From an uncultured Bacilli bacterium (GTDB taxonomy: Bacteria > Bacillota_I > Bacilli_A > RF39 > UBA660), in contig CAJUGE010000070.1 of NCBI GenBank assembly GCA_910586295.1, forward strand, positions 17,032 through 81,031: a stretch of DNA of 64,000 bases, written 5' to 3'. Shown piece after piece: positions 3,557 through 60,945 of the stretch (the stretch's first letter is position 1; each line of letters starts with the position of its first letter). The notes beneath the pieces are model-generated. The model saw nothing but the letters and a program-made list of their open reading frames with translations. It searched no databases and was not told the DNA's origin. The position numbers were made by a program, and so were the translations under genes.

Positions 3557-3568
3557 GCAAAAAAATAG

Positions 3569-5179: not shown

Positions 5180-5248
5180 AATTAAAGTTAGTAGTTTTAA
5201 TTTATTTTTTTTAATTGTATAATAGACTTAAGAAGTAGGAGTGGTATT

Positions 5249-18752: not shown

Positions 18753-18840
18753 ATTAAAATAAAAGGAATTGTTATTAAAATATAGCAGTTCTTTTTTTAG
18801 TAAAGTTAATGGTAAGTGTAATCATTTTATTTGATTTAAG

Positions 18841-18869
18841 TATGTGTTTGTGTTATTATTTAAAGTAGA
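18841..18869 (+). promoter_or_regulatory. Sigma-A-type promoter (TTGATT-N17-TATTAT) for the second giant repeat gene
   Basis: Duplicate of the 15891..15919 upstream region. About 55 bp are conserved across the two copies. Confidence 0.45.
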
Positions 18870-18888
18870 ATAATAGGGAGACGATAAT

Positions 18889-20571
18889 ATGGATAGAGAA
18901 AGATATGAGCAAATTAGAAGAGAAGAAGAAAAGAGACGTATACTTGAGGAGGATGGATTATATTTTAGAGATCCTAAGAATAAAAAGCAAAAAACCAAGC
19001 AAAAGGTTATGATGATATTTTCTTTAATTATATTTATGGGTGCAACTGTTGCGACGACTTTAGTCATTATCAATTATTTTCATGCTAGAAAGACATTAGC
19101 TGTTAATATCGATACCGATGAAGATGGATGGCCAGATTTAAACGTTGATGTTAATGGTGATGGCAAATGTGAAGTTAATTGTGATACAGATGGTGACAAT
19201 AAGCCAGATACTAATATAGGTTATAAAAAAACTTTAATTGCATTTTTTAATATAGATATAGATGGAGATGGCAAACCAGATAGTAATCTAATAAACCAAG
19301 ATATAAATGGTGATGGCAAGTGTGACTTGAATTGTGATACAAATGGTGATGGATATCCTGATACAAATTTAGATTTTAGTAGTACTGGAGTTGCGAGAAT
19401 TAATATTGATAATAATAATGATGGAAAGTGTGATTTGAATTGTGATGTTTTAGGTTTAAGGACTGCTCAGGTAAATATAGATACTGATAAAGATGGCAAG
19501 CCAGATGTTAATATCGATATTAATAATGATGATAAACCAGAAGTTAATGTTACATATGGAAGTGATTATGAAAATCCAATTTTTGGTATAGATACTAATG
19601 GAGATGGCAAGCCAGATGAAAATTTAATAAACCAGACGAAAAATGGTAAGTGTGAGGTTAATTGTGTTTTAGAAAATGGTTACTTTCCAGTTTTAAATGT
19701 TGATATGGATGGTGACGGAGAAGCAGACATAAATCTTGATACTAATGGAGATAATTTGGCTGAGTTAAATATAGATATAATTGGCGATGGTAAGTGTGAT
19801 TTAAATTGTGATACAGATAATGATGGTATAGCAGATATTAATGTTAGCTTGGGAAATAATGTTTACATAAATCTTGATTATGATAGAGATGGTAAAGCAG
19901 ACATAAATCTTGATACTAATGGAGATAATATTCCAGATAAAAATTTAATGAATCAAGAAGAAAATGGTAAGTGTATTTTGAATTGTGATTTAGATGGTAA
20001 TGGAATACCTGATATAAATATAGACATTGATGGAGATGGCAAAGCAGATGTTAATATTGATTTAAATGATGATGGTAAGGCTGATGCTAATCTTGATACT
20101 GATGATGATAGAAAACCTGATAGAGATATAATTGATACTAAAGCCGATATAGTAAAGGATGTCCTAATTTCGGCTAAAGAATTGTCTTATAGTTTGGATT
20201 ATTTAGATAAGTATCCAAATTTTAGTGAAATGATTCCTGGATGGAAAGGTACAAAAACCTTTAAGGTTACTAATAATAGTAGTGAGACTATTATCTATGA
20301 TATTGAATGGGATGATTTAGTTAATACTTTTACTTATGAAAATAGACCTTTTTATAGTGTTGTAAAGGATGGTAATACTTTAGTTGCTATTCAAAATGGT
20401 AGATTTTCGTATTCTGCTAATAATGGTGAAAAGTTTGTTAGTAGTATTAGTATAAAACCTGGTGAAACTCATAATTATGTAATAAACTATGAATTTAATA
20501 AAAATAATACTGATCAGAGTGTTGATAATGGCAAGATAATTTTTGGAAGGTTAAAGATTGTCACTAAATAA
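18889..20571 (+). CDS. Paralog of the giant repeat protein, 560 aa, with the same architecture: cytoplasmic N-terminus, transmembrane helix, DxDGDGK Ca-binding repeats, and a TasA-like C-terminal domain.
   Basis: EEDGLYF plus a K-rich stretch plus the transmembrane helix MMIFSLIIFMGATVATTLVII. Repeats such as DIDGDGKPDSNL and DGDGKCDLNCD. C-terminal IPGWKGTKTFKVTNNSS...QSVDNGKIIFGRLKIV. Confidence 0.8.
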   Translation: MDRERYEQIRREEEKRRILEEDGLYFRDPKNKKQKTKQKVMMIFSLIIFMGATVATTLVIINYFHARKTLAVNIDTDEDGWPDLNVDVNGDGKCEVNCDTDGDNKPDTNIGYKKTLIAFFNIDIDGDGKPDSNLINQDINGDGKCDLNCDTNGDGYPDTNLDFSSTGVARINIDNNNDGKCDLNCDVLGLRTAQVNIDTDKDGKPDVNIDINNDDKPEVNVTYGSDYENPIFGIDTNGDGKPDENLINQTKNGKCEVNCVLENGYFPVLNVDMDGDGEADINLDTNGDNLAELNIDIIGDGKCDLNCDTDNDGIADINVSLGNNVYINLDYDRDGKADINLDTNGDNIPDKNLMNQEENGKCILNCDLDGNGIPDINIDIDGDGKADVNIDLNDDGKADANLDTDDDRKPDRDIIDTKADIVKDVLISAKELSYSLDYLDKYPNFSEMIPGWKGTKTFKVTNNSSETIIYDIEWDDLVNTFTYENRPFYSVVKDGNTLVAIQNGRFSYSANNGEKFVSSISIKPGETHNYVINYEFNKNNTDQSVDNGKIIFGRLKIVTK

Positions 20572-37699: not shown

Positions 37700-39109
37700 T
37701 TAGTTTGGTAGAGCTATCGTGTATGGATTATTCCCACTGCCATCCCCTCCAGTTACTAGTACATTAGACACGAGAGAGACTACTGGGCGAACAACACCCT
37801 TAGTAGACACAGATGTGTCTACTAAGCGGCCAGGATTGCCAATATGCACAATGAATATAAGTGTGCTGATAGTACTGTGGAAGTAAGATGGGCTCATTGT
37901 CCACCAGTAACGTATTCCAGTTGAACTTCCACCTTCTGTATTCAAGTAATAATATGCACTTTCATTATTAACATCATATAATCCTCCAGCATATGAAACC
38001 TCATCTGCTGTCATTAATCCGAAATTATAGAATCTATCTGCTTCATTTCTACATTCATATGTGGGTCTCTTATTTGTTATTAGTCTTGTATATGCTGCAT
38101 AGTAGAATTGATTACTTGTACTGTATGCTCCATTTTCTCCTCTATCATTACAATATATAGCATTAGTATCTATATAATTTGAATATGACGAAGCAATATT
38201 TGAATTATACCATGTTTCTACTGCTGCATAAGCATTACTCTTAGTAGCATTTTCTCTATTTGTTGATAGACTATCTCCCTTAGTATACTGCCATCCTACA
38301 TATTGCGGATGGTTATATTCTCCATTCACACTATATGTTTGTGCGCTTTCTATATATCCATCTTCTCCTCCACTTCCTGCATATAGTAGTCTTACACTTC
38401 CGTTTCCATTGATTCTGATTATTCTCCATAAACTTCCTGCAAAGCTTACCCAGTTATTTGGATTTCCTGTAAAGTAATAACTTGTTCCGCTAAATGAACC
38501 ACTTGCATTATAGTCTTTTGCTTCATGCAGTGCTGCCTCAGTATATATACTAATAAATGAACTTCTTGTTCCACTACTAGGATATGCTGCTTTTATTATG
38601 CCTGCCAACGTTTTATCTTCTAATACAATATTACAAGTTTGATTTGATGTCATATTTTCTACTATCACTTTATTATCTTCTATTCTAGCTTTACATCCTG
38701 TTACATTTTGTATTGGTGAAGTTGAATATATGATAACAGTTCCATTATTTACGGTGGTCTTTGAGCTGCTATCTAAGTTTTGTGGAACATTAGAAGTGAC
38801 TGTTACTCTATACCCAGGTGTATTTACATCTTTAGTAAAATCTACTGTACATCTATCATTACTCTTAATATTAGTTAATTCTACTTCCCAGTTATCATTA
38901 TCCCACATCATATCTGAATCATTATCACATACGATTTTATTGACAATGTATCCTTCTTCTTTAGTCGGCTTTTCTAAAGCTACTTCCCCGTCAATTGTAT
39001 AACTTAACATACCATTAGTTTCTAAAGTATTTTCATTTTCTTCTTTATTACATCCAGTAATTACTATTAATATAGTTAGTAAAGTAATTAAAATAATTTT
39101 AATTTTCAT
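37700..39109 (-). CDS. Lipoprotein, paralog B of 1332..2747
   Basis: Lipobox ITGCNKE. Long stretches are near-identical to paralog A (ETNGML.YTIDGEVA.EKPTKE.GY.VNKIVCDN..DMMWDNDNWEVELT; NWVSFAG.LWR.IRINGNGSVRLLYAG; FGLMTADEV.AGG; GGDGSG.NPYT). Confidence 0.6.
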   Translation of the reverse strand: MKIKIILITLLTILIVITGCNKEENENTLETNGMLSYTIDGEVALEKPTKEEGYIVNKIVCDNDSDMMWDNDNWEVELTNIKSNDRCTVDFTKDVNTPGYRVTVTSNVPQNLDSSSKTTVNNGTVIIYSTSPIQNVTGCKARIEDNKVIVENMTSNQTCNIVLEDKTLAGIIKAAYPSSGTRSSFISIYTEAALHEAKDYNASGSFSGTSYYFTGNPNNWVSFAGSLWRIIRINGNGSVRLLYAGSGGEDGYIESAQTYSVNGEYNHPQYVGWQYTKGDSLSTNRENATKSNAYAAVETWYNSNIASSYSNYIDTNAIYCNDRGENGAYSTSNQFYYAAYTRLITNKRPTYECRNEADRFYNFGLMTADEVSYAGGLYDVNNESAYYYLNTEGGSSTGIRYWWTMSPSYFHSTISTLIFIVHIGNPGRLVDTSVSTKGVVRPVVSLVSNVLVTGGDGSGNNPYTIALPN

Positions 39110-48024: not shown

Positions 48025-49500
48025 TTAATTGTTATTTTCTGGTTTCATAAGTGGGAATAAGACAACATCTCTTATTGAGTCAGTATTGTATATTAACATC
48101 ATAAGTCTATCAATTCCGAATCCTAGTCCTGAAATTGGTGGCATTCCTTGCTCCATTGCTAGTAAAAAGTTTTCGTCTAGGTCCATAGTTTCATCATCAC
48201 CTTGACTTTTTGCTTTAAGTTGTTCTTCAAATGTTTCTCTTTGTGTCTTAGGATTTACAAGTTCTGAATATGCTTTGCAAAGTTCGGTTCCGCCTGCGAT
48301 TACTTGGAATACGTCTATTCTTTTTGAGTCTTTGTCGTTTCTTCTTGCTAATGGAATAAGTACTGCTGGATAGTTATAAATTATTGTTGGCTCGATTATG
48401 TTTTTACGAATTTTATTTTTGTATACAAAATCGATTATTTGACTTAGTGAATGGTAGTCTTCTAGTTCTGTCAATGTAAACAATCCTTTTTCTACTATTT
48501 TTTGTTTTAGCTCGTCTGGTTCTTCTATGTTTAGAAAGTCAAAACCAAATACTTTGTTCATTTCTTCGCAGTAATTGATTTTATTCCATTCTTCTTTTCC
48601 AAAGTCAAGAGTGTTACCTTGATATTCTATAGTAGTTCCACCTGTGAGTTCTTTTAGTAGCTCTTTTATGAAGTTAGTGTAAAATTTCATGTTGTCTTCA
48701 TAGTTCCAGTAGGAAGCATACCATTCAACTTGAGTAAATTCTTGTAAGTGTTCTGTGTCCATTCCTTCGTTTCTAAAACATTTAGATATTTCATAGACTT
48801 TGTCGAATCCGCCTGCGATACATTCTTTTAAGTAAATTTCAGGTGCTATTCGTAGATTGCAGTCCATGTCTAATGCATTGTGGTGTGTAAAAAATGGTTT
48901 AGCAGATGCACCAGAGACTGCTGTTTGGAGAATTGGAGTTTCTACTTGTAGGAAACCATTTTCTCCTAAATACTTATGTAGAAATGAATAGAATTTACTT
49001 CTTCCTATGAAAATACGTCTTGATTCTTCATTAGTAATTAAGTCAACATATCTTTGTCTATATTTTATTTCTGTATCTTGTAATCCGTGGAATTTTTCTG
49101 GTAATGGTCTTAGTGCTTTTCCTAGAAATTCAAATGAATGGACTCTAAGTGTTTTTTCTCCAGTTTGTGTTGTGAATATTTCTCCAGTAGCACCTATGAA
49201 GTCTCCAGTATCAATTAGTTTTTTAAAGAAGTCATATTTTTCTTCGCCTACTAAATCAATTTTAAGTTCTAGTTGCATTGCTCCTTCTAAGTCTCTAATT
49301 TTTATGAAGCTAAGTTTTCCCATTTTTCTCATGAATACTATTCTACCTGCTAGTGATATGTTTGTTTCTCCATCACTAAGGTTTTGTGCATCTTTTAGTG
49401 TGTGTGTTTTCTTAAATTTTTCTGGATAAGGGTTACAAAATTCTGATATGCTATCTAATTTTTCCCTTCTTACAATTTCTTGTTCTGTTAATTCTCTCAA
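48025..49500 (-). CDS. lysS: Lysine--tRNA ligase (class II LysS)
   Basis: 491 aa. TTG start with AGGAGG 8 nt upstream. Class II motifs FRNEG, GGTELC... and GLGFGIDRL. Confidence 0.95.
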   Translation of the reverse strand: MRELTEQEIVRREKLDSISEFCNPYPEKFKKTHTLKDAQNLSDGETNISLAGRIVFMRKMGKLSFIKIRDLEGAMQLELKIDLVGEEKYDFFKKLIDTGDFIGATGEIFTTQTGEKTLRVHSFEFLGKALRPLPEKFHGLQDTEIKYRQRYVDLITNEESRRIFIGRSKFYSFLHKYLGENGFLQVETPILQTAVSGASAKPFFTHHNALDMDCNLRIAPEIYLKECIAGGFDKVYEISKCFRNEGMDTEHLQEFTQVEWYASYWNYEDNMKFYTNFIKELLKELTGGTTIEYQGNTLDFGKEEWNKINYCEEMNKVFGFDFLNIEEPDELKQKIVEKGLFTLTELEDYHSLSQIIDFVYKNKIRKNIIEPTIIYNYPAVLIPLARRNDKDSKRIDVFQVIAGGTELCKAYSELVNPKTQRETFEEQLKAKSQGDDETMDLDENFLLAMEQGMPPISGLGFGIDRLMMLIYNTDSIRDVVLFPLMKPENNN

Positions 49501-49502
49501 TT

Positions 49503-49729
49503 TTCTCTCCTCCTAAAATAAAAAGTTATTGAATTTAAGGGACGAGTTTACCCGTGGTACCACCCTAATTTATCAATAACTTGATCTTATTATTTATAAC
49601 GGTTATTAACCGGGCATAAGCCACTCGAAAGTTTTTATTCATATTAGGCTTGTTACCAATTTCCATCTTATTTGGCTTTCTATAAATAGTTTCTAATATT
49701 ACTCGTCTTTCTCATCGATTTATGGCTAC
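49503..49729 (-). promoter_or_regulatory. T-box riboswitch leader of lysS
   Basis: The minus strand carries AATTAGGGTGGTACCACGGG (the T-box consensus AANNAGGGTGGNACCGCGG) 30-60 nt before the start codon, followed by a T-rich tail. The 5' part has GATGAGA...AGTA (a stem I K-turn-like element). Confidence 0.65.
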
Positions 49730-49900: not shown

Positions 49901-50489
49901 ATGAATAATATTTTATATGTTTATATAGACGAAAGTGTAGACTTTGGTTTTAGTGAAGGAAGTTCTATGTTGTATGTTGTATCTTTTGTTTTTTATGATG
50001 ATGTTTCTTCAATAGATGGAGATGTTAGCTATCTTAATAAGAGACTTGTTAGGTCATAAAGGTATGATACATACAGCATTACTTGTTTCAAGAAAGAATG
50101 AGTATAATAAATGGTCTTTTGAAAAGAGAAAAGATGTTTTTTCTACATTGTATAATTTTGCTAGAAAAATAGGAGTTAGATTAAAGAGTGTTGTTATTGA
50201 TAAGAAATATTTTAATATGAGAATACGATTAAAGAAGAAATTGAAAGATGAAATGGAGAAGTTTATACGAGAAAATGGGAATTATATAAATTCTTATAAA
50301 AAAGTGATTATATTTTATGATGATGTAGAGTTTGTATCAAAGTTTAATCATAAAGATAATAGAATATTTCAAGTAGCAGATATGCTTACAGTTTTTGATA
50401 AACTAGATTTTAAAATAAAAAATAGATTGCTTTTAGTAAGAATGAGAAAGAGTTTTTTTATCTTAAAAAGTATAGTATTTTTTAAGTAA
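49901..50489 (+). pseudogene. DUF3800-family gene disrupted by a frameshift near 50000-50057
   Basis: Frame A reads MNNILYVYIDESVDFGFSEGSSMLYVVSFVFYDD (the DUF3800 N-terminal YIDESGD motif) and stops at 50057. Frame B, from 50016, continues for 157 aa. RBS GGGAGG precedes the frame A ATG. Confidence 0.5.
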
Positions 50490-50601
50490 CTTTTTATAAG
50501 TTCTTAAATGCTGTTATATTCTTATTTTATGAGGATTTACGACATTTTATTTTTAGAAAATGTTTGAATATATTTTTATAATTTCTTATATTTTTTCTTT
50601 C

Positions 50602-50790
50602 AAAAGTAGTAAATTAGTAGTAAAAATTTAAATATTTTTTGAGACATTAATTTTAAATATTAAAAATGCTGTGACATTGTACATTATTAAAGTATAGTCT
50701 TATGAGCGAGACTAGTGGTGTAGCCACAAAGTCCTCGCCATAATAAGGTATAGTATTACCCTTATTATGTAGCGTGTAGCATGTAGCAAA
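50602..50790 (-). repeat. Structured intergenic repeat element of roughly 190 bp, copy 1. It lies immediately 3' of the HD-domain gene, in inverted orientation relative to copy 2.
   Basis: The reverse complement aligns with 60129..60327: TTTGCTACATGCT.CA.G.TACATAATAA.GGTAATACTAT.CCTTATTATGGCGAGGACTTT.GTGGCTAC.CCACTAG.C.CGCTCA...TATACTTT.ATA...TTTTTACTACTAATTTACTACTTTT. It contains a 10-bp hairpin, CATAATAAGG / CCTTATTATG. Confidence 0.6.
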
Positions 50791-50794
50791 TTTT

Positions 50795-51418
50795 TTATTT
50801 AATTTTAGTTTTAATTTCTTTTAGTCTTTCGACAAATTCTTTTTTATTATTTAAAAGATTGCGTAATTCTTTTAAATAATTGTTATACTCCATATCTTCT
50901 ACAAAGAAATTAGCATAACCACCGTTTCCAAATTTTTCTAATGTATGTTTATAACATTCCTCAATTGTTTCTTTCTCACTAAGTTTATTAAAATGTGTAA
51001 TGCTATAAAGATAAATTCGTTTTAATGAATCATCAACATCGATATTTCTATCTGCAGATGATAATATTTTTCCATAAATACTTCTAGGCTCTCGATTTAA
51101 TGAAGCCCTATGATCTTCTATTGCCTCTTTCATTATTATTAAGTTCTTGTCATTAAAAAAATTATTTAAGTTCGTATCATTATACATAATTTGAGCAGAA
51201 ACTTTTTCATGATTTTTATAATCTACATAATAACCAATATCATGATATGCCGCTATTACATAAAGCATGTTATTATCAATATCCATATTTTTACTTAATT
51301 TATAGCATCTATTGATAACATAGTTAATATGCTCTATTTGATGTCCTTTATCATTTAGTTTATATCGTGGAAATATGTTTTGTTCAATATATCTTTTTAA
51401 TTCTTCATTCACATTCAT
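50795..51418 (-). CDS. HD-domain phosphohydrolase
   Basis: GHQIEHINYV...VIAAYHDIGYY gives the H...HD metal-binding motif. 207 aa. Confidence 0.65.
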   Translation of the reverse strand: MNVNEELKRYIEQNIFPRYKLNDKGHQIEHINYVINRCYKLSKNMDIDNNMLYVIAAYHDIGYYVDYKNHEKVSAQIMYNDTNLNNFFNDKNLIIMKEAIEDHRASLNREPRSIYGKILSSADRNIDVDDSLKRIYLYSITHFNKLSEKETIEECYKHTLEKFGNGGYANFFVEDMEYNNYLKELRNLLNNKKEFVERLKEIKTKIK

Positions 51419-51578
51419 TAACTCATCTCCATAATACTAATTTATAATAAACGACTTTAAGTTTATAAAAATTAGCATGTTCGCTTGTTTAATAAACTAA
51501 CTTATAGTATAATTCTTTTAGGGAATATCAGTTGTTGAGTGTCTACCGAATCTCTAATAGAGAGGAGGATTGATAAAA

Positions 51579-51671
51579 ATGAAAACTAGGACTTTTATCA
51601 TTAAAGCTCTTAAGCTCATTGCTATCATTTTATTTCTCCTTATCATTATGATAGTAGTAATAAAAAAATGA
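51579..51671 (+). CDS. Small hydrophobic peptide (30 aa)
   Basis: MKTRTFIIKALKLIAIILFLLIIMIVVIKK, with RBS AGAGGAGG 8 nt upstream. An 11-bp stem-loop overlaps the stop codon, and a terminator follows. Confidence 0.35.
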   Translation: MKTRTFIIKALKLIAIILFLLIIMIVVIKK

Positions 51672-51718
51672 CACTTAATTCTTCATTGAATTAAATGTCT
51701 TCACAATTCATTGGGTAG

Positions 51719-51760
51719 ACATTCAACTCGCAAAAACTGAATGTTCCCTTTTTTATTTTA
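51719..51760 (+). terminator. Rho-independent terminator after the small peptide ORF
   Basis: ACATTCA, a 12-nt loop, TGAATGT, then TCCCTTTTTTATTTT. Confidence 0.5.
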
Positions 51761-51984
51761 TGCAAGTTCCCTTGACATATTCATAATAACACATTTTATA
51801 ATTATTGTCAAAAATTCATATCAGAAAAAATGTATCATTTTTATGTGATTGTATGAAGATTTTATATAAAGTAGTATTAGATTATTCATACATCGTTTAA
51901 AATAAAGAATTCACATCGAAAATCAAAGTTTTTATGATAAAAATTTTATTTATTTAGTAAGTGATATTAAGTATAAAAGACTTA

Positions 51985-52016
51985 AATAAAAAGAAAAACT
52001 ACTCCATAAGGGTAGT
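51985..52016 (-). terminator. Minus-strand rho-independent terminator about 155 nt downstream of dus
   Basis: On the minus strand, ACTAC-CCTTATGGA-GTAGT is followed by TTTTCTTTTTATTT. Confidence 0.4.
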
Positions 52017-52171
52017 CTTCTTACTAGTGTTTTTTAACTAGCACTGGTCGGTCCTTACCAGACTTATATCTCAACTTATGTTGTAATGCTGTTCAGACCT
52101 AAGTTGAAGAATTTCTTCTTCATTAATTATATTATACTAGTATAAGAAATTACGTCTAGCTTTTTTGAAAA

Positions 52172-53149
52172 TTAATTTAATGCGTCTTCGATTGAATTTA
52201 TTGTATTTATTAATTCTTCTTCAGTTTTACAAGTTACTATTTTGTTTTTTATTTCTTTTGTGTTTGGAATACCTTTTAAATACCAGAGTGCGTGTGTTCT
52301 TATTTCTAATAGTGCTACATTAGTATTTTCATATTGTTTTAGAAGCTCGTAGTGTCTTTTTATCATATTTATTTTCTCTTTTGGTGTAGGGGTTGGTATT
52401 ATATTATCGTTTTCTACATATTCGATACACTCTTTTATAAACCAAGGATTTCCAAGTGTGGCACGCCCTATCATAATAGCATCACAGTTTGTAGTTTCTA
52501 ACATTCTTTTTGCATCTTCGATTGTTTTAATATCTCCATTTCCTATAACAGGAATTTTTACATTTTCTTTAACTTGTTTAATTATGTTCCAGTCGGCTGT
52601 TCCACTATAGCCTTGACTTCTAGTTCTTGCATGTATTGCAATTGCAGAAGCTCCAGCTAGTTCTATTTTTTTAGCAACTTCAATTGCATTTATATTATTC
52701 TCGTCCCATCCACTTCTTATTTTTACTGTTATAGGAGTATTTGTATTTTCTACTACAGATTTAACTATTTCGTATATTTTGTCTGGATTTTTTAAGAGTG
52801 CACTTCCTGCTTGACTTTTTATAGCAACTTTGGGAACAGGACATCCCATGTTTATGTCTATAATATCTGGATGAAAGTTTTCTTCAATGTATTTTGCTGC
52901 AGTTACAAATGAATTAGTATCGTGTCCGAATATTTGAATACTTATTGGTCTTTCTTCTTCATTAAAATTGATAAGATTTATAGTTTTTTTGCTACCATAT
53001 GTAATACCAGTAGATGATATCATCTCAGAGTATATTAAACCAGCACCCATTTCTTTTATAATAGTTCTATAACTAATGTTAGAAACTCCAGCCATGGGCG
53101 CAAATACTATTCTATTATTAATTGTAATATTTCCTATTTTCCACTTCAT
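52172..53149 (-). CDS. dus: tRNA-dihydrouridine synthase (DusB-like)
   Basis: The N-terminal FAPMAGVSN and NMGCP (the catalytic Cys loop) mark a TIM-barrel FMN-binding fold. 325 aa. Confidence 0.85.
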   Translation of the reverse strand: MKWKIGNITINNRIVFAPMAGVSNISYRTIIKEMGAGLIYSEMISSTGITYGSKKTINLINFNEEERPISIQIFGHDTNSFVTAAKYIEENFHPDIIDINMGCPVPKVAIKSQAGSALLKNPDKIYEIVKSVVENTNTPITVKIRSGWDENNINAIEVAKKIELAGASAIAIHARTRSQGYSGTADWNIIKQVKENVKIPVIGNGDIKTIEDAKRMLETTNCDAIMIGRATLGNPWFIKECIEYVENDNIIPTPTPKEKINMIKRHYELLKQYENTNVALLEIRTHALWYLKGIPNTKEIKNKIVTCKTEEELINTINSIEDALN

Positions 53150-53195
53150 GAGATAATTATACTTTATATATGAAAAAAAGCAAATTAGTTTTTAA

Positions 53196-54320
53196 CTAAT
53201 CTGCTTCAGTAGATACTTTTTTTAATGTAACTTTACATATTGCGTTGGTTTTAACGTCATATACTTTAACTATTGCAGTGTCTCCAGTTGATTGATAATC
53301 ACCTCTGGTGCTTCCATCACAGTCAACATTCATATTATTGTAACTGTAACCTGTTTCCGCTTTTATAATAAATGTTGCAGTTTGTCCTTCAGATACTTCC
53401 ATTGGGCTAGTGCCATCTGTTATTTTTCCACCTTCTACTGTAAGTGTTACAGATAGTTTTTTTGGTTTAAATGTTACTGTACATTTAGTATTATTTGTTA
53501 TTTCACGAACTGTAAGTTTTCCGTTTACAAATGAAGCCTTTTGATTATTAGTGCAAGTGTAAGTGTCATATATATAGTTCTCTGCTTCTTCTATTTCAAA
53601 TTCTACGTTTCCACCATGATTTACTGATTTAGCTCTTTCACCAGTTATGGTTCCAAAGTTTGCTTCAACTTCAACTGTGTAATCACTTATTTTAAATGGG
53701 ATTGTACAAGTTGAATCTTTTGTTACATCAGTAACTTTTAAATCTCCAGTAGCTTCGTCATATTCTGCTTTTGCTCCATTTGTACAACTAACTTTTATTT
53801 CATTATCATACTTATAGCCTTCATTAGGTTTAACAATTATTGTTGTTTCGTCATTTAATAACGCATCAAATTCTTGTTCATTTTCTTTGTTTGGCAATTC
53901 TCCATTACTTGCTTTAATAGTTATTTTGTGTAAACTCTTTAGAAAGTATAATCTACAAGTTGAATTAGAAGATAATTCTGGTGGTGTAAATTCCCATTCT
54001 TCTTCATCCCAAGTTCCAGTTTCATTTGGTTCTTTAGTGTTAGTACATGCTGCTCTTTCAAATTGATATACTAGTGTGTCGTCTTCTGCACCTTCGAAAT
54101 CTGGATTTATAACTTTTAATTCTTCTTTTTCTGGTAATTCTTCAACTTTTTCATTGTCTATATAATACATATATGTAACTTTATAAGTTTCATTTTTATC
54201 TTTATCTTTAGGTTTGTCTGTTTTTGAACTTTCTAAATAGCCTATTGTTCCACATGCTAAGCATATAACAATTAGTCCTATAAGAGTTATTATTAATCCT
54301 TTTTTGTTTTTCTTTTTCAT
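53196..54320 (-). CDS. Lipoprotein with three beta-rich repeats of about 75 aa, resembling Listeria-Bacteroides (InlB B-repeat / Flg_new) domains
   Basis: Lipobox LIVICLACGT. Each repeat is bracketed by Cys residues (…SCTNGAKAEYDEATGDLKV…STCTIPF; …YTCTNNQKASFVNGKLTV…TKCTVTF; …VDCDGSTRGDYQ…AICKVTL). Confidence 0.5.
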   Translation of the reverse strand: MKKKNKKGLIITLIGLIVICLACGTIGYLESSKTDKPKDKDKNETYKVTYMYYIDNEKVEELPEKEELKVINPDFEGAEDDTLVYQFERAACTNTKEPNETGTWDEEEWEFTPPELSSNSTCRLYFLKSLHKITIKASNGELPNKENEQEFDALLNDETTIIVKPNEGYKYDNEIKVSCTNGAKAEYDEATGDLKVTDVTKDSTCTIPFKISDYTVEVEANFGTITGERAKSVNHGGNVEFEIEEAENYIYDTYTCTNNQKASFVNGKLTVREITNNTKCTVTFKPKKLSVTLTVEGGKITDGTSPMEVSEGQTATFIIKAETGYSYNNMNVDCDGSTRGDYQSTGDTAIVKVYDVKTNAICKVTLKKVSTEAD

Positions 54321-54478
54321 AAGTTTTATTCCTCCAACTTCTTATTCTTTTTACTATATGTTTATTTTATAATAGATGTCCTTTTATGTCAACTATCTAA
54401 TTTTACTCTTTACTAATGTTTTTTATGCTGTTTTTCATGCAAAATATTGTCTTTTTAATTGAAAATATGAGATTTTGT

Positions 54479-54506
54479 TTGACTTTGTAAAACTTTATAG
54501 TATAAT
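54479..54506 (+). promoter_or_regulatory. Sigma-A promoter (TTGACT-N16-TATAAT) for rplM-rpsI, with a leader of about 85 nt
   Basis: Consensus hexamers. The leader may correspond to the Firmicute L13 autoregulatory leader; its structure was not verified. Confidence 0.5.
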
Positions 54507-54591
54507 GATAGTTGGTACATTTTTATTGTTCTGGTATTTATGTTGTGGGAAGGCATATATATTAAGGACAGATAGAAGGAGAAATATTATT

Positions 54592-55020
54592 ATGAAAACA
54601 TTTATGTTAAGAAAAGAAGATGTTAATACTAAATGGTTCGTGATTGATGCTGAAGGGCAAAATTTAGGTAGAGTTGCTAGTAAAGCTGCACATATTTTAC
54701 GTGGAAAACATAAGCCTACATTTACTCCTCATGTTAATTGCGGAGATGCGGTTATTATCATTAATGCTAGTAAGGTAAATCTTACTGGAGATAAACTTGA
54801 TAAGAAGGTTTATTACAATCATAGTGGATATCCAGGTGGTTTAAGAGAAAGAACTGCTAAAGTTATGAAAGAAAAATATCCAGTTGAAATGGTTGAGAGA
54901 GCTATTAAAGGAATGCTTCCTAAGAATAGACTTGGAAGAGATATGTTTAGAAATCTTTATGTATATGAAGGTAGTGAACATAAACACGAGGCTCAAAAAC
55001 CAGAGAAGTTAGAATTATAG
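54592..55020 (+). CDS. rplM: 50S ribosomal protein L13
   Basis: [30 protein letters not shown]... An internal ATG with an RBS is preferred over the longer 54475 ORF. Confidence 0.9.
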
Positions 55021-55029
55021 GAGGAAACT

Positions 55030-55428
55030 ATGGCAGAAGCAAAGAAATATAGAGCTACTGGTAGAAGAAAAAGAGCGGTAGCACAAGTAACATTAGTTAG
55101 TGGTAAAGGTAAAATAACTGTTAATGGTGTAGATGTTAGAGAATATTTACCTTATGATACTTTGGTTATGGATTTGAAACAACCTCTAGTACTTACTGGA
55201 ACTGAAAATGATTTTGATGTTGAAGTTACTGTTAAAGGTGGAGGATTTGATGGTCAAACTGGTGCGATAAGATTAGGTATTGCTAGAGCTTTACTTGAAG
55301 TTAATAGTGAAGGTTATAGACCTACTTTAAAAGGTGCTGGTATGATAACTAGAGATGCTAGAATTAAAGAGCGTAAGAAATACGGTCTTAAGAAAGCAAG
55401 ACGTGCTCCACAATTTAGTAAGAGATAA
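55030..55428 (+). CDS. rpsI: 30S ribosomal protein S9
   Basis: [14 protein letters not shown]...[19 protein letters not shown]...[12 protein letters not shown]. Confidence 0.95.
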
Positions 55429-55510
55429 ATTTACGGTCCGAAATATTTCGGGCTTTTTATATTGATTTGCAAATAATGAAGATAATGATATAATTAAGTA
55501 GGAGGTTTTT

Positions 55511-56290
55511 ATGGAAAGATTTAAAGAAACTATAATGAGTGAAAGTAGGCATCATTTTGTTTATGGATATGATACTACCAAGAGAAAGGAATTTTGTGAG
55601 TCTTTGGAAAAGAGTTATCCAATAGTGATGGATTCTGATAAACCAATGGGTATTTATTTGGAAGAATATGGATTACCAAATATTGAGTATGATAAGGGAC
55701 TTGTTGATATGTATGAGACGTGGTCAATTAGCAGAGAATATTTGTGGTTTTCAATTATATATAGGATTTTGTCTAATGCTAAGGAAAGTGTTGGATTTGA
55801 TGAATTAAATAAAAGAGTTCAAGAATTAATTAATCGTTTGAATAGAGGATTTAAAACTCCTGGTTTTAAGGATATTCAAGACTTAAATCACTTGCTTGCA
55901 GTTTTTAAAGAATCAATAGAGTTTTATTTAGAGTCTTATAAAAATTATGTTTTAAATATTGAACGTGTACAGATTGATAGTGTGCCTATTCCTTTTATGA
56001 ATTTAGAATTCTTTGTTAAGCGTTTTAAAGAAAGTATAAATAATCAGTCTTATTTTGGAGTTATTATTAATAATAATAAAGATATAGCCTTATCTTCTGT
56101 ACAGTCTATTAATGATTTAGTTGGTTCTAGAATAAACGGAGATATTTCTATGAAAATAGTAACTGAGCCTGATAAGTGGAAATCTTATAGATGTACGCGG
56201 GATGATTTTGTACAATCTGTTCATGATTATGGTACTATAGAGTTAGATGATAGTTTGCGTGACAATATTAAGTCATTAAAAAATAACTAG
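55511..56290 (+). CDS. Hypothetical protein (259 aa), possibly a degenerate P-loop-NTPase-like fold
   Basis: No intact Walker A. HHFVYGYDTTKRKEF and FGVIINNNKD sit where NTPases carry their Walker A and Walker B motifs. Belongs to the accessory insert between rpsI and htrA. Confidence 0.35.
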   Translation: MERFKETIMSESRHHFVYGYDTTKRKEFCESLEKSYPIVMDSDKPMGIYLEEYGLPNIEYDKGLVDMYETWSISREYLWFSIIYRILSNAKESVGFDELNKRVQELINRLNRGFKTPGFKDIQDLNHLLAVFKESIEFYLESYKNYVLNIERVQIDSVPIPFMNLEFFVKRFKESINNQSYFGVIINNNKDIALSSVQSINDLVGSRINGDISMKIVTEPDKWKSYRCTRDDFVQSVHDYGTIELDDSLRDNIKSLKNN

Positions 56291-56295
56291 TTAAA

Positions 56296-56676
56296 CTAGC
56301 TATTTAGGAAAGGCCCTTTAGCGGCTTTTTTTAATTCTACTCTTACAACTGAAGATAGTTCGTCTACTTCAATTATTTCTCTTTCTCCAATAGTCCATCC
56401 TGAGTCTCTAGTGTAGGTATTAGTTAGTCCTTCTATTACACTACTAACATCACTTGGTGCACATGATTTTACAAAGACTTCCTCGTGAGTACCAGCAGGT
56501 ATTTCTTTTCTTGAAATTGGTACACTTATTTTTACTTTTCCATCTTCTAATGGTGTGAGTGTTACTTTTCCTACTAAGTAGCCATTATCTCTGTCATATA
56601 GTTTTTCTAGACAACTTATAGTTTCGTATATGTAACTTCTGTAAGTTGTTTTTTCAAATGTTTGTGTGTCATTCAT
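56296..56676 (-). CDS. Hypothetical protein (126 aa)
   Basis: Convergent with the previous ORF and tightly packed against it. No motifs recognised. Confidence 0.35.
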   Translation of the reverse strand: MNDTQTFEKTTYRSYIYETISCLEKLYDRDNGYLVGKVTLTPLEDGKVKISVPISRKEIPAGTHEEVFVKSCAPSDVSSVIEGLTNTYTRDSGWTIGEREIIEVDELSSVVRVELKKAAKGPFLNS

Positions 56677-56792
56677 TGTTAATTCCTCCTAGCATATTAT
56701 TAACATAAAAAGTGTATTATAAAAAGAAAATTATGTGAAAAATGTGGTTAAAGTGTTAAGTTTATGATAGAATTTACTTTAGGTGACGAGGG

Positions 56793-57728
56793 TTGGCAAA
56801 TAAAGTATTTAAAAATTTAGATGAGCAAATTAATATTTTGAGAGACAAAGGTCTTATAATTAATGATGAAGATTATGCTAAAGAAATATTGCTTCGTGAA
56901 AACTATTTCTTTATTATGGGTTATAGGCATTTGTTTGTGAAACATGATACGACTAGAAAGTTTAAAGATGGTTCTACGTTTGAAGAATTATATAGTTTAT
57001 TTGTGTTTGATAGAATGTTTAGAAATATTATATTTAAGAATATACTTATTGTTGAGAATAACTATAAATCTATATTTAGTCATGTTTTAAGTAAAGATTA
57101 TGGTTATAAGGAGAAAGATTATCTTAATAGTAAGAATTTTGATACTAGTAAAGAGAAGAGTAGACAGATTAATGATTTGGTTAGAAAAATTAAGAGACAA
57201 CTTAGAATAAATGGTAAAAATCATGGGGCGACTAGTCATTATATGGATAATTATGGTTATATTCCTCTTTGGATAGGTATTAAAGTTATAAGTTTTGGTA
57301 TTATGAGTGAGATGTTTAGTGTACTTAAGTATCATAATAAAGAAGAAATTGCAGATATTTATCATATTACTCCAGAGGAGATGGAAGTGTTTTTACCGAT
57401 ACTTGCGAATTACAGAAATTTATGTGCGCATGAAGATATAGTGTTTGACCATTTTACTCAGAGAGTTATTCCTGATAATAAGTATCATAATTTATTAAAT
57501 ATTGATAAAACTAATGATGAGTATGTGTATGGTAAAAATGATATTTTTGCTCTTATAATTATTTTGAAGTTTCTTCTGACTCAGACAGATTTTAAGATGA
57601 TGATGAATGAAATAAATTATGAGTTTGATAGATTAAGTGGTAAGTTGCATACTATTAGTATTGATGATGTATTAGATAAAATGGGATTTCCACCTAATTA
57701 TAAAGATATTATGTATATGGAAGGATGA
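56793..57728 (+). CDS. Abi_2 family (AbiD/AbiF-like) abortive-infection protein, second copy
   Basis: TTG start. DEQINILRDKGLIINDEDYAKEILLRENYFFIMGY and NYRNLCAHEDIVFD are Abi_2 hallmarks. Ends 7 nt before htrA. Confidence 0.7.
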   Translation: MANKVFKNLDEQINILRDKGLIINDEDYAKEILLRENYFFIMGYRHLFVKHDTTRKFKDGSTFEELYSLFVFDRMFRNIIFKNILIVENNYKSIFSHVLSKDYGYKEKDYLNSKNFDTSKEKSRQINDLVRKIKRQLRINGKNHGATSHYMDNYGYIPLWIGIKVISFGIMSEMFSVLKYHNKEEIADIYHITPEEMEVFLPILANYRNLCAHEDIVFDHFTQRVIPDNKYHNLLNIDKTNDEYVYGKNDIFALIIILKFLLTQTDFKMMMNEINYEFDRLSGKLHTISIDDVLDKMGFPPNYKDIMYMEG

Positions 57729-57734
57729 TATAGT

Positions 57735-58811
57735 TTGAGAAAGAAAATTGCTTATGTTTTGTTATGTTTACTATGTTTTATACTAGGTTCTGGTGTTATG
57801 TTTGGGGTGCTTTATTTGTATCCTAAGACAATAGTTAAAACTATAAGGGAAGAGAATGTTAATATTACTGATACTGGTATAAGTGCTGCAGTTGACAAAA
57901 TTAAAGATTCTGTGGTGGTAATTGAGGTTTATAGTGGTAAGGATTTAGTTAGTACTGGTACTGGGTTTGTATATGATCAAGATGATGATTTTGGTTATAT
58001 TATGACTAATCACCATGTTATTGAGGACGCTGGAGATATAAGTATTACTTATAGTGATGATAGTGAAGGTAGTGCAAGTGTGGTTGGAAGTGACCAATAT
58101 GCAGATATTGCAGTTCTTAGAGTACCTAAGAAAGATATAAAGAGTGTTGCAGTTATTGGAAGTAGTACCGATATGAAAGTTGGAGATACTGTGTTCACTA
58201 TTGGTAGTCCTATGGGAATTGATTTTAGAGGTACTGTTACTAGGGGAATACTTAGTGGGAAAGACAGGTTAGTTTCTGTTAATGTTAATTCTAATCAAGC
58301 AGATTGGATTATGAATGTTATGCAGACAGATGCTGCGATTAATCCTGGAAATAGTGGTGGACCTTTATGTAATGCTAATGGAGAGGTTATTGGTATTAAT
58401 TCTTTAAAGATAGTGAAAGATACTATTGAGGGGCTTGGATTTTCTATTCCTATAGAAGATGCGATAAGTTATTCTAAGAGTATAAGAGAAAAAGGAAGTG
58501 TTAGTAGACCTTATATTGGTGTGAGTATGTTAAATGCTAGTAGTACAATGCAACTTGCTTATGCAGGTCTTAGAATAGATAGAAATATTGAAGATGGTGT
58601 TGTTGTTGTTGAAATAGAAAGTGGAAGTCCTGGAGATAAAGCAGGTTTAAAACGTGGAGATGTAATTGTTAAAGTTGGTGATGATTGGGTAAGTGATATT
58701 GCAGAATTTAGATATAGGCTTTATAGTTATTCTCCAGAAGAGACAATAGAGATTACCGTATTAAGGGATGGTAATGAAGAAAGGGTTAATGTTAAATTAT
58801 CAAGTAATTAG
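57735..58811 (+). CDS. htrA: Membrane-anchored HtrA/DegP-family serine protease with a PDZ domain
   Basis: Transmembrane anchor. Catalytic His (TNHHV), Asp and Ser (GNSGGPL), then PDZ (GSPGDKAGLKRGDVIVKV). Confidence 0.85.
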   Translation: MRKKIAYVLLCLLCFILGSGVMFGVLYLYPKTIVKTIREENVNITDTGISAAVDKIKDSVVVIEVYSGKDLVSTGTGFVYDQDDDFGYIMTNHHVIEDAGDISITYSDDSEGSASVVGSDQYADIAVLRVPKKDIKSVAVIGSSTDMKVGDTVFTIGSPMGIDFRGTVTRGILSGKDRLVSVNVNSNQADWIMNVMQTDAAINPGNSGGPLCNANGEVIGINSLKIVKDTIEGLGFSIPIEDAISYSKSIREKGSVSRPYIGVSMLNASSTMQLAYAGLRIDRNIEDGVVVVEIESGSPGDKAGLKRGDVIVKVGDDWVSDIAEFRYRLYSYSPEETIEITVLRDGNEERVNVKLSSN

Positions 58812-59049
58812 AATTTAAGTCATGAGCTTTTGTGGTAAGTGGCTTTTGTGGTAAGTGGCTTTTTTGTAAAGATATTGAAAATAAAAAGTATCGATATCTT
58901 ACTAAACTAAATTAAAGCAAAATCATATGATTAATAGATAAAAGTGTTCTTCAACTAAAATTTACTTCTGTTACTACATACCTATTATCTAAAATTCTGA
59001 ATACTTTTTGTTATAAAAGTTGTGATTTTTGATTAAATGTCTTTATTTT

Positions 59050-59100
59050 AGGGGTATATGTAGGATTTTAGTGGTGTTTTACTACTAGTTTACTACTTTA
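59050..59100 (+). repeat. Partial, degenerate third copy of the structured repeat element
   Basis: GGGTATA...TTTACTACTAGTTTACTACTTTA matches the 3' part of copy 2 (GGGTATACTTTG...TTTTTACTACTAATTTACTACTTTT). Confidence 0.3.
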
Positions 59101-59284
59101 TAAATTCATATTACTTTTATAAAATGAAAAATATGACGAGGATATATTAGATGATAATATTATTGAAATTATACAGAATACTAAATAAAAAAACAAAGAT
59201 GATTTTGAACTAAAGTTAGACAAATTTTGCATAAAATCAATTTTTATGGTAATATAAACACTAATTTTAAAGGAGAATTCTATT

Positions 59285-60106
59285 ATGAAAGAAATAAAAT
59301 CGAAGGAAATAGATTTATTTGCTCTACAAAAATTACAAAGTTAAGGAACAAAAAGTACAATTTATACTGATGGAAACATATGTTATAAATTTCTGGATGG
59401 TCTTTATCCAGATGAAAAAAGAGATTTGCACAAAAAGTTTCTTGATATGGATGGAATAAAGATTAATAATGTATTATTACCTCAAGATTTAATAATTAAA
59501 GATGGTATATTATACGGTTATACTATGAGATATTTTGAAAATTCCATACCATTATCAGATAAATTTTTAAAAAGATATTTTAATTGCAATGAATTATTTA
59601 TCTATGTATATAAAGCAAGTAAGATATTAAGAGATATTCATAACAATGGTATATGTTGTCAAGACCTAAGTTTTGAAAATATATTAATTGATAATAAAGG
59701 AAACGTTGCATTTTGTGATATTAATGGTTGTACTTATAAAGAACATCGTTCACCATTTTTTTCTAGATTACTTAAAGAATTCTTAGTTGATTATAGAAAA
59801 TCTAGAGTATCTACAGTAGAAGATACAGATAAATTATCAATAATTTTATCTTTTTATCTTACAATGTATGGAGAAGTATTACAAAGAATAACAAGAAGAC
59901 AATACCATGTTTTATCAGATAATATACGTACATTAGAAAATTTGAGAGAAATTGCTAATATATTGGTTGATAAAAAAGTTCTTATACAAGATATGCCATA
60001 TTTAGATGATGTTATAGATTTAACAGATAATTATGAAATAGATAGAAAACAAGTTTTAACTTTAAAGTCAAAAATATTAAATTATTTTTTCTGCAGAAAT
60101 AAATAA
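59285..60106 (+). pseudogene. Protein-kinase-like fold gene with an in-frame TAA at codon 20 (59342-59344)
   Basis: MKEIKSKEIDLFALQKLQS*GTKSTIYTDGNICYKFLDG (Gly-loop and VAIK-like region), then IHNNGICCQDLSFENILIDNKGNVAFCDINGCTY (compare HRDLKPENILID...DFG). The stop falls exactly at the first Gly-loop position. The downstream 226-aa ORF begins only at Met 59426. Confidence 0.5.
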
Positions 60107-60128
60107 TTTAATGCTTACGAAAAGAATC

Positions 60129-60327
60129 AATAAAAACATTTGCTACATGCTTCATGATACATAATAATGGTAATACTATCCTTATTATGGCGAGGACTTT
60201 AGTGGCTACGCCACTAGACCCGCTCACAGGGTATACTTTGATACTATGACATTACATAGTATTTTTTAAATATTTAAAATTAGTACTTTGAAAGTCTTAA
60301 AATTTTTACTACTAATTTACTACTTTT
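60129..60327 (+). repeat. Structured intergenic repeat element of roughly 190 bp, copy 2, lying 3' of the kinase-like gene
   Basis: Near-identical to the reverse complement of 50602..50790. Contains hairpins CATAATAATGG/CCTTATTATG, GGCGAG...CCCGCT, and the inner AGTGGC-TAC-GCCACT. Confidence 0.6.
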
Positions 60328-60945
60328 AATAGCAAAAATATAAGGGATTATAAAAATATATGTGAATATATCCCAGAACAAAAGTATCAAAAACCATATA
60401 AATAAAGTTATAAAGATATTTAAGAACTTATGAAAAGTTGCTCAAAAAATACAATATTTTTAATTAACAATTTCTATGTTCGATCAATATTCTTATACTA
60501 TTTTCAAATAAATTAAAATAATCTATTCTTCTTTTAGCAAAAGCTTTATACACATTTTTACTTATAAATTCTATTTGTGTCTATTTCATCTATACAAGAG
60601 ATACTAACATTTTAAATGTTTTATAATATGTTAAATTTAAAAACAACGTATCTATTAAAGTAAGCAAAAGTTTTATTCCACTATTTAGTTTATATTTTGA
60701 TGCTTTTGATAATTCTGGTAAATAAGCCTTTATGAAATTCATACTGTTTTTCTAAATTTTATATTTAATATTTTTAATTCTATTATTTTAATAATACATT
60801 ATTTCAAATCTATGTTTTGCAAAGAGGTGAATTAAACTAAAAAAAGGTTTAAAGAAAATTCATTTTGTTTTATTGGTTAACTTTTGTTTTTCTTGACTTC
60901 ATTTTAAAGCTAATGTATGATATATCCTAGGAAGGAGAAATTTTT

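Follow-up and report, generated by a model that had tools for sequence, protein, structure and literature searches.

Inverted repeats in an uncultured Bacilli contig are probably the cis-acting parts of miniature Tn916-family integrative elements

In a 64,000-nucleotide stretch of an uncultured Bacilli genome (GenBank assembly GCA_910586295.1, contig CAJUGE010000070.1, positions 17,032 to 81,031 of the forward strand; hereafter the window), two copies of a hairpin-rich repeat stand in opposite orientation, each close behind the stop codon of a small gene. The locus raises the question of whether such a repeat is a mobile sequence, a structured RNA or the end of something larger, options that a preliminary description of this DNA had left side by side. 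Here, each repeat is interpreted as the conserved cis-acting part of a non-autonomous miniature integrative element of the Tn916 family carrying one cargo gene, a reading to which we give a probability of about 0.75. The two units, element 1 and element 2, are listed with their parts in Table 1.

Extent of the repeat and of the unit around it

The reported alignment of the reverse complement of 50602–50790 with 60129–60327 is reproduced, and the observation of a repeat is partly confirmed: the repeat is real but was mis-measured. Instead of about 190 bp, it spans about 335 bp (50457–50790 on the plus strand and 60466–60139 on the minus strand), and both intervals match an nhmmer profile of 52 related copies (Table 1). 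The similarity does not stop at the TTTACTAC tandem, where the copies were thought to end, but runs about 140 bp further, to 50457 and 60466. A repeat search within the window returns the inverted similarity in three collinear pieces (50466–50804 against 60125–60461), and pairwise alignment of the two copies gives a mean column identity of 86% over about 350 columns. The TTTACTACTAnTTTACTAC tandem occurs at exactly three sites in the window (50606–50624 on the minus strand, 59078–59096 and 60305–60323 on the plus strand), compared with a chance expectation of 0.5 sites even with three mismatches allowed; the G+C content of the window is 28%. The second of these sites lies in 59050–59100, formerly taken for a truncated third copy, a candidate that was rejected because nhmmer aligns only 23 bp there (59077–59099, E = 0.04); the match instead marks the right arm of element 2, which holds the second arm-site pair of that element.

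Related copies were collected by scanning one genome per species for the exact pattern of loop and last heptamer, a biased sample that yields at least 117 stretches, with about 80 true copies among the matches listed; the family counts are lower bounds. Among the matches listed, the hosts are mostly metagenome-assembled genomes (MAGs) of uncultured gut Bacilli, "Tenericutes" or Mollicutes, and a G+C-richer variant exists in Clostridia. By blast and multiple alignment, the family module of about 335 bp has sharp ends, beginning with AAAAAKATWGTA and stopping directly after the third heptamer, and conservation is highest in the GTAGTAAAnnnGTAGTAAA pair and in the origin hairpin together with the heptamers. 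Of 54 full modules, 36 have another GTAGTAAAnnnGTAGTAAA pair, oriented like the first, no more than 1.6 kb past the origin; only 37 of the 54 loci extend far enough to include one. This second pair belongs to a conserved right arm of approximately 70–90 bp, ending in ...AAAAACTAAACTTTTT and followed by 5–6 variable nucleotides and an A-run. The left junction mirrors the right one, with a T-run (37 of 53 copies), about 6 nt and then AAAAA..., so the whole unit is bounded by AAAAAKATWGTA... on the left and ...ACTAAACTTTTT on the right. Tn916 inserts at T-rich/A-rich sites with coupling sequences of about 6 bp, and the element junctions resemble these coupling sequences and this target preference. 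Tandem units, in the order right end, 6 nt, left end, are present at three loci (L083, L062 and L267), and such a joint has the form expected for a circle joint.

Between the arms lies one open reading frame (ORF) of 89–301 aa, convergent with the module in 37 of 42 units, its stop codon abutting the heptamers. The units measure 767–1598 bp and number at least dozens, each with a different single cargo gene. The cargo families include HD, GNAT (twice), Ppx-GppA, DNA_alkylation, Lysine_decarbox/SLOG, His_Phos_1 and Metallophos, and further HAD, WDGH, SDR, PNP_UDP_1 and NUDIX; the kinase-like cargo of element 2 and about a dozen other cargo genes have no Pfam match. This architecture accounts for the reported position of the copies behind genes, because the gene is the element's own cargo and moves together with the repeat. 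The position itself holds in the family, but it derives from the internal architecture of the unit; the copies were said to start a few bases past a stop codon, which is correct for copy 1 (4 nt after the HD stop) and not for copy 2 (33 nt after the stop of the kinase-like gene).

Both arms resemble Tn916. Over about 170 bp, the left arm (50467–50624) shares about 70% identity with the Tn916/Tn925 of pCF10 at its int-proximal end, where GTGGTAAAtaaGTAGTAAAttc of Tn916 aligns with GTAGTAAAttaGTAGTAAAa of the window. We take the arm-site repeats to be the DR-2 arm-type sites to which Tn916 Int binds with its N-terminal domain. In the right arm, 38 nt of the pair region match the far end of a Tn916 copy in Enterococcus faecium (NZ_CP027401.1; a copy with int, xis, tet(M), mobT and ftsK) at 89.5% identity. 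Both arms match the two ends of this copy, the right pair of element 1 being damaged. In the spacer of the arm pair, the three nucleotides are free in mini-elements (TTA in 26, TTG in 18), whereas larger elements have TTC, which is the GAA codon. Furthermore, the TTTACTAC tandem encodes FYY*FTTF, and the integrase of a larger relative (L053, below) has FYYEFTTF. A scan of viral contigs for the DR-2 pair returned a substantial left-arm match in only four, with about 30 nt in two more.

The units occur between unrelated flanks. In 18 of 18 homologous unit pairs, 70–100% identical over the whole unit, no similarity is present in the 300 bp beyond the ends, wherever testable. Element 1 is 98.7% identical to locus L035 over exactly window 50453–51942, with the same HD protein as cargo, and 99% identical to L031 from window 50453 onward; element 2 is 84% identical to L040 over window 59165–60461, with the same right-arm pair and an intact 261-aa homologue of the kinase-like gene as cargo. 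In all three loci, the flanks are unrelated. L082 and L083, from different MAGs, are 100% identical over 1,139 bp. Four MAGs contain a larger element together with mini-elements, runs SRR15730532, SRR15510239 and ERR9465718 being examples with such MAGs, and single MAGs hold at least 4–5 units. It could be argued that each copy arose by itself, as what deletion in situ left of a full-size element that decayed there, as decay is visible in the window's own species and remnants of the cis-mobilizable element (CIME) type are common beside integrative and mobilizable elements (IMEs) (PMC5704250). This is highly improbable, since more than 50 copies have one deletion junction in common, at which Int codon ~401 meets sequence upstream of hairpin A, identical whole units stand between unrelated flanks in different genomes, and the at least 4–5 copies per MAG carry different cargo.

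The origin hairpin and base pairing in the module

Both window copies contain the Rfam motif RF03070 (ssNA-helicase) over its full length, model positions 1–49, at 50739–50788 on the plus strand (47.9 bits) and at 60189–60141 on the minus strand (43.4 bits); both covariance-model scores lie above the curated gathering threshold of 41.5 bits, which defines membership. No other Rfam family gives a credible match at a relaxed E-value. The site is the 10-bp hairpin of the preliminary description, situated on the strand opposite to the one given there. The Rfam model consists of a hairpin with the loop UAGUAUUA(C), followed by UGUAGCAUGUAGCA, and the window copies match over all 49 nt. It was proposed as a candidate RNA or single-stranded DNA by Weinberg et al. 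(2017), and the main text of PMC5737381 contains no discussion of it. A CRESS-type origin (of viruses with circular, single-stranded DNA that encode a Rep) is recognized by a stem-loop that presents NANTATTAC as its loop nonanucleotide and by tandem iterons next to it. The same layout is found here: a 10-bp stem carries an 11-nt loop that contains TAGTATTAC, and three heptamers similar to TGTAGCA come next. In the literature, circoviruses, nanoviruses and many further CRESS-DNA viruses have TAGTATTAC as their origin nonanucleotide. Whereas RF03070 models 49 nt without a function, the motif here is part of a 335-bp module in an element of about 1.45 kb.

The hairpin and the nested stem (hairpin B) are both present as described. 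Folded as single strands, the hairpins have z-scores of −3.9 to −5.8, far better than shuffled sequences (0 of 200 shuffles as good). Across 60 distinct copies, 92.3% of the pair cells are paired, compared with 27–52% for slid controls, and compensatory changes on both sides occur at 13 pairs (7 of 500 shuffles reach 13), in 50 cells against 13.8 expected (0 of 500 shuffles), although the copies are related to one another and these pairing and covariation statistics overstate their independence. In hairpin B, seven of the eight outer pairs are compensatory across copies, and an apparent A-C at one of its pairs can also be read as a shifted bulge. Over all helices, the mismatches comprise 59 G-U and 71 A-C cells, balanced and with no consistent strand bias; an assignment of the strand from these counts was dropped because they are symmetric. 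Because covariation is accompanied by balanced G-U and A-C counts, the data fit hairpins that act in DNA, as a cruciform or in either single strand, and not as a strand-specific RNA. For hairpins A and B, a single-strand origin, a rep operator and a transcriptional insulator are candidate roles.

These observations bear on the suggestion that the module is a structured RNA, either a small-RNA family or a 3'-untranslated-region stability or termination element for the upstream gene. In its favour, RF03070 has the Rfam type 'Gene; sRNA', compensatory changes accompany the conservation of the hairpins, a gene's stop codon always precedes the module, and a T-run follows hairpin A on the cargo-sense strand. 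Against this, a bacterial small RNA would be expected to tolerate G-U on one strand only, the symmetric mismatches favour neither strand, and no intrinsic terminator (a G+C-rich stem followed by a T-run) is found at any site in 50457–50790 or 60139–60466. The invariant positions, moreover, lie in an origin loop of viral type, in the tandem heptamers and in arm sites like those of Tn916, all putative protein-binding sites, and larger relatives have the same hairpins upstream of rep. Strains of the host species have also deleted hairpin B and half of the origin hairpin, with the adjoining gene still called intact. An RNA function is thus very unlikely, and the integrative mini-element remains the preferred interpretation.

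Larger relatives and a possible route of movement

In four larger relatives (L053, L109, L094 and L098), about 3.9 kb separate the module's left 170 bp from its right 100–160 bp or so. In L053, this interval holds the genes of four proteins on a single strand: a tyrosine integrase (PF00589 and PF02920, E = 1e-32, the latter being the DNA-binding domain at the N-terminus of Tn916 Int), an excisionase of the Tn916 type (PF09035), a Rep with a Viral_Rep domain (PF02407; 3260–4249, minus strand; its best solved relative is the PCV2 Rep 7lar, E = 5e-11), and an FtsK-like ATPase, called from its Walker-A motif and gene position only, with no Pfam match. In the G+C-rich Clostridia variant L047, an FtsK_SpoIIIE protein occupies the same position (E = 2.8e-17), and the motif lies directly upstream of Rep (PF02407 and PF00910), followed by FtsK_SpoIIIE and then a tyrosine integrase. 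The motif was named for a helicase, and no helicase gene is near the window motifs; because relatives of the L053 and L047 types carry a circovirus-like Rep beside the motif, the 'helicase' is, judging from gene content, that Rep. As for orientation, in L053, of the AT-rich Tn916-armed type, the motif (4387–4435) is inverted and divergent relative to rep, and in L047, of the G+C-rich Clostridia type, it is co-directional with rep (896–941). The cargo region of L053 also encodes a 418-aa sigma-70-family protein (4992–6248, minus strand), which recalls the sigma-like orf7 of Tn916. Because their origin stem has diverged, the sampled larger relatives are, on sequence comparison, cousins of the mini-elements and not their parents. 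L100 and L112, considered as larger parents with a mini-type origin stem, proved to be truncated mini-elements beside housekeeping genes.

A mechanism can be proposed from these parts. Int and Xis from a helper or resident Tn916-like element would bind the arm sites, the core sites and the termini, cut the mini-element out as a circle and insert it anew where a T-run, ~6 bp and an A-run follow one another; GTAGTAAATTAGTAGTAAA is a putative target of Int residues 1–70, as are the GTAGTAAA pairs of the Int N-terminal domain. Rep would bind the heptamers and nick the loop, the putative substrate being CATAATAAGG-TATAGTATTAC-CCTTATTATG with a predicted cut at TAGTATT/AC, which in element 1 falls between T50757 and A50758. 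It may then replicate the circle by the rolling-circle mode, or hand it to a conjugative pore via an FtsK/TcpA-like coupling protein. A mechanism of this kind was proposed for IMEs with a PF02407 relaxase by Coluzzi et al. (PMC5357655).

The same Rep suggests another route, in which the hairpin drives rolling-circle transposition, as in IS91 or Helitrons, without the tyrosine integrase. Rep is an HUH endonuclease fused to an SF3 helicase, and CRESS-like Reps act as transposases in eukaryotic Replitrons (PMC10288648). Nevertheless, the hairpin is internal, about 290 bp from the left end, and both of its sides move together; both termini and both arm-site pairs are Tn916-like, the junctions have the form T-run/~6 nt/A-run, and tandem units look like circle joints. 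Rep-driven transposition is therefore unlikely, though the least so of the alternatives considered, and movement by a Tn916-type integrase is the reading retained here.

Several points weigh against that reading. The 18 contigs from other samples with identical flanking proteins all carry both elements at the same sites, so there is no empty site among these contigs of the window's species; likewise, none of 11 metagenome contigs matching mini-elements has the terminal overlap of a circle. The binding of DR-2 pairs by Int and the nicking by Rep are deduced from homology only. In the larger relatives, the origin stem and hairpin B differ somewhat, and additional sequence follows the heptamers. 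In addition, the sampling by an exact origin pattern biases the collection behind the lower-bound counts, and many hosts are MAGs, in which the assignment of contigs to species is imperfect.

If the reading holds, RF03070 would provide a circovirus-like Rep of bacterial integrative elements with its nick site and iterons, and the Tn916 recombination system has spawned miniature, gene-carrying, non-autonomous derivatives, which would spread single accessory genes (phosphohydrolases, GNATs, NUDIX, SLOG/LOG-like, kinase-like and many unknowns) among uncultured gut Bacilli. For annotation, a small gene beside the repeat would be cargo that belongs to a mobile unit, and the name sRNA should be avoided for the repeat; in terms of virus evolution, the elements would be a bacterial system in which a TAGTATTAC origin serves single-gene units of about 1 kb reliant on Rep in trans. 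More tentatively, and at rather worse than even odds, gut Bacilli and Mollicutes-like bacteria may maintain a 'cassette economy' of single-gene integrative replicons of approximately 0.8–1.6 kb, with Tn916-type att arms and a circovirus-type origin, excised with the help of Int and Xis and replicated or transferred by a pCRESS-like Rep and an FtsK-like protein from helper elements. In function, such replicons would parallel nanovirus segments or betasatellites, though in the chromosome, and bacterial circovirus-like Reps would have the ssNA-helicase motif as their origin (oriV/oriT). Each part is known by itself (the motif of Rfam, the arms of Tn916, pCRESS and IME Reps, CIMEs), but their combination, a multi-copy, single-gene, non-autonomous Tn916-type mini-element with a circovirus-type origin, appears undescribed in the searchable literature.

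The window elements and known systems

Table 1. Parts of the two elements in the window (positions in window coordinates).
Feature	Position	Strand	Evidence or remark
Element 1, whole unit	50465–51933	+	1,469 bp: left terminus, module, HD cargo, right arm
Element 1, flanks			T-run 50453–59 and ATCTT left; ATGAT and A-run 51934–42 right
Element 1, conserved module (left arm and origin region)	50457–50790	+	nhmmer E 2e-84; blast against 60+ loci
Integrase remnant, last 27 codons, Tn916-type gene	50545–50625	-	tblastn with L053 Int residues 401–427, 74% identity, E 1.6e-6
DR-2-type arm-site pair GTAGTAAAttaGTAGTAAA (the TTTACTAC tandem)	50606–50624	+	aligns with GTGGTAAAtaaGTAGTAAAttc, int-proximal end of Tn916/Tn925 in pCF10
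Hairpin A, degenerate (family consensus ATACTATG/CATAGTAT)	50666–50687	.	alignment, pair counts
Hairpin B, nested stem GCGAGACT[AGTGGT-gta-GCCAC]AAAGTCCTCGC	50706–50738	.	compensatory pairs, DNA fold
Origin hairpin	50739–50769	+	RF03070; loop TAGTATTAC at 50751–50759
Three tandem heptamers TGTAGCG-TGTAGCA-TGTAGCA, putative Rep iterons	50768–50788	+	module end
Cargo, HD-domain protein, 207 aa, intact	50795–51418	-	Pfam PF01966, E 4.5e-8
Right arm of element 1	51868–51933	+	21-nt deletion took most of the DR-2' pair; AAAGTAGTA remains
Element 2, whole unit	59015–60461	-	1,447 bp, inverted relative to element 1
Element 2, conserved module	60139–60466	-	nhmmer E 3e-80; alignment takes in 5 nt of coupling sequence, 60462–60466
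Integrase C-terminal remnant (FYY*FTTFNSKNIRDYKNICEYIPEQK)	60304–60384	+	tblastn 70% identity, E 7.7e-7
DR-2-type arm-site pair, left arm of element 2	60305–60323	-	
Hairpin A, element 2 (ATACTATG-acatta-CATAGTAT)	60241–60262	.	alignment, pair counts, fold
Hairpin B, nested stem, element 2	60190–60225	.	alignment, pair counts, fold
Origin hairpin, element 2	60160–60189	-	RF03070; TAGTATTAC on minus strand at 60178–60170
Three heptamers TGTATCA-TGAAGCA-TGTAGCA, element 2	60141–60161	-	
Cargo, kinase-like gene, in-frame TAA at codon 20 (59342–59344)	59285–60106	+	translation; weak Pkinase match
Right arm of element 2	59015–59099	-	DR-2' pair 59078–59096; right terminus AAAAGTTGTGATTTTT at 59015–59030; 42-unit right-arm alignment

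The window elements look like immobilised fossils, since no int, xis, FtsK-like or rep gene is detected in the 64 kb by tblastn, apart from the 27-codon integrase remnant, the right DR-2 pair of element 1 is mostly lost and the cargo of element 2 is a pseudogene. Element 1 is eroding differently in different strains. In the window and in strain contig L239, a 21-nt deletion removes most of its right-arm pair, as shown by alignment with L035 and strain L240, both of which keep AAAGTAGTAAATTAGTAGTAAAA. In L240, L241 and L242, the right-arm pair is kept and a 56-nt deletion between GTATAGT direct repeats takes hairpin B and the 5' arm of the origin hairpin; the gene beside the deleted hairpins is still called intact, and the host evidently has no need of them.

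Two further observations concern element 1. A 157-aa ORF without Pfam match (50016–50489, plus strand), annotated as a gene in public assemblies, reaches 25 nt into the left end of the element, so that its last 8 codons and stop are element-derived. Between the HD gene and the right arm, 51579–51811 shows a type I toxin-antitoxin-like arrangement: a hydrophobic 30-aa ORF (MKTRTFIIKALKLIAIILFLLIIMIVVIKK, 51579–51671, plus strand) with a strong GGAGG ribosome-binding site faces a promoter match on the minus strand (11 of 12; TTGACA, 17 nt, TGnTATTAT; 51811–51783) and a terminator-like hairpin on that strand (51699–51670). Together, promoter and terminator are predicted to yield an antisense RNA of about 115 nt overlapping the 3' end of the ORF.

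With two inverted ~335-bp repeats 9.3 kb apart, the copies might also be imagined as the ends of one composite transposon or invertible segment of about 10 kb. Of all the alternatives, this is the least probable: the interval contains the core genes dus, rplM and rpsI and an HtrA-like protease gene, each copy lies in its own bounded unit that is found alone elsewhere, and the flanking genes of each element keep the same relative order and orientation in 18 of 18 strain contigs, none of which spans both elements. Given the core genes between the two mini-elements, their inverted arrangement is therefore incidental.

The region downstream of rpsI (55511–58811; compared in L240 and L247–L254) varies between strains and looks like an integration hotspot. 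In the window, it encodes 259-aa and 126-aa unknown proteins, an Abi_2 protein and the HtrA-like protease; in L240, a phage-type integrase adjoins rpsI, and other strains have reverse-transcriptase, holin and amidase genes beside the 259-aa gene. Elsewhere in the window, a T-box leader (RF00230, 96.3 bits; 49535–49724, minus strand) precedes a class II aminoacyl-tRNA synthetase gene (48025–49500). At 16146–20154, a very large coding repeat has a period of 36 nt (12 aa) and abounds in GATGGxGAT (D-G-D) units, suggestive of a giant repeat protein of the calcium-binding type. Regions 1404–2295 and 38140–39043, about 36 kb apart, share inverted repeats of 416, 89 and 40 nt with 74–90% identity and are probably paralogous genes in opposite orientation. 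A 66-nt intergenic unit with a short hairpin (GTCGTCCTCCAAAGACGGCG) and the end CGATTTAACGTTTTT is present in two direct copies, 83% identical (3550–3615 and 3664–3729). Two genes share a segment 79% identical over 42 nt (281–322 and 5960–6001), which by eye looks like a UvrD/PcrA-type helicase motif; these genes are unrelated to the 'helicase' of the ssNA-helicase motif.

Among known systems, conjugative transposons of the Tn916/Tn1545 family are close in their recombination module: in the larger relatives, Int has the N-terminal DNA-binding domain of Tn916 and Xis is of the Tn916 type, and the element junctions are AT-rich with about 6 variable nucleotides. Compared with the 18 kb of Tn916, the window elements measure 1.45 kb and carry no int, xis, conjugation or resistance genes, and their origin is of the circovirus type, whereas that of Tn916 is a MobT oriT. 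The larger relatives, L053 and L047 among them, share the gene set of IME_Class_7 (Coluzzi 2017, PMC5357655) and of integrated pCRESS plasmids (Kazlauskas 2019, PMC6668415): Rep (PF02407, to which PF00910 may be added), a protein of the FtsK/TcpA type, a tyrosine integrase and, in some, Xis. None of these is encoded by the window elements, which thus have neither the integrase nor the relaxase of their own that define an IME. The L053-type integrase is Tn916-like, with low target specificity, whereas the published IME_Class_7 and pCRESS examples are described as site-specific (ebfC). A search of the main texts of both papers for relevant terms found no named origin.

Like CIMEs (PMC5704250), the window elements have lost integration and transfer genes, keep attL and attR, and belong to a family with tandem accretion. 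However, the mini-elements retain an origin and share one family-wide deletion junction, which exceeds the CIME definition, and with many copies at many sites and an exchangeable single cargo they behave as trans-mobilised units, not as local remnants. The MITE label (miniature inverted-repeat transposable element), offered in the preliminary description, was essentially right about non-autonomous mobility and wrong about the class and the anatomy. MITEs were taken to be non-coding, shorter than about 0.8 kb and bounded by terminal inverted repeats and a target-site duplication. [quoted passage not shown] The mini-element is not a MITE, because the mobile unit is about 1.45 kb long, carries a gene and has Tn916-type arms; across the family, the units (767–1598 bp) contain one ORF and a replication origin, their ends are recombinase att arms that are only weakly inverted (consensus ends), and no target-site duplication is seen, the flanking 5–6 nt differing between the two sides. 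A gene-less MITE of 340 bp was ruled out by the second DR-2 pair and the co-moving cargo. Compared with an integron gene cassette, which is recognized by an attC site, an integron integrase and an attI platform, the mini-elements have Tn916-type arms, DR-2 pairs on both sides of the gene and dispersed sites.

By analogy only, the stem-loop with TAGTATTAC and its adjacent tandem repeats are comparable with the origins of CRESS-DNA viruses, nanovirus segments and begomovirus betasatellites. Nanovirus segments and betasatellites are, like the mini-elements, about 1–1.5 kb long, with one gene and a common origin region, and receive Rep in trans, as the mini-elements presumably do. The mini-elements show no sign of an ssDNA or virion stage and differ from them in being chromosomally integrated via a tyrosine recombinase and in lacking a capsid gene.

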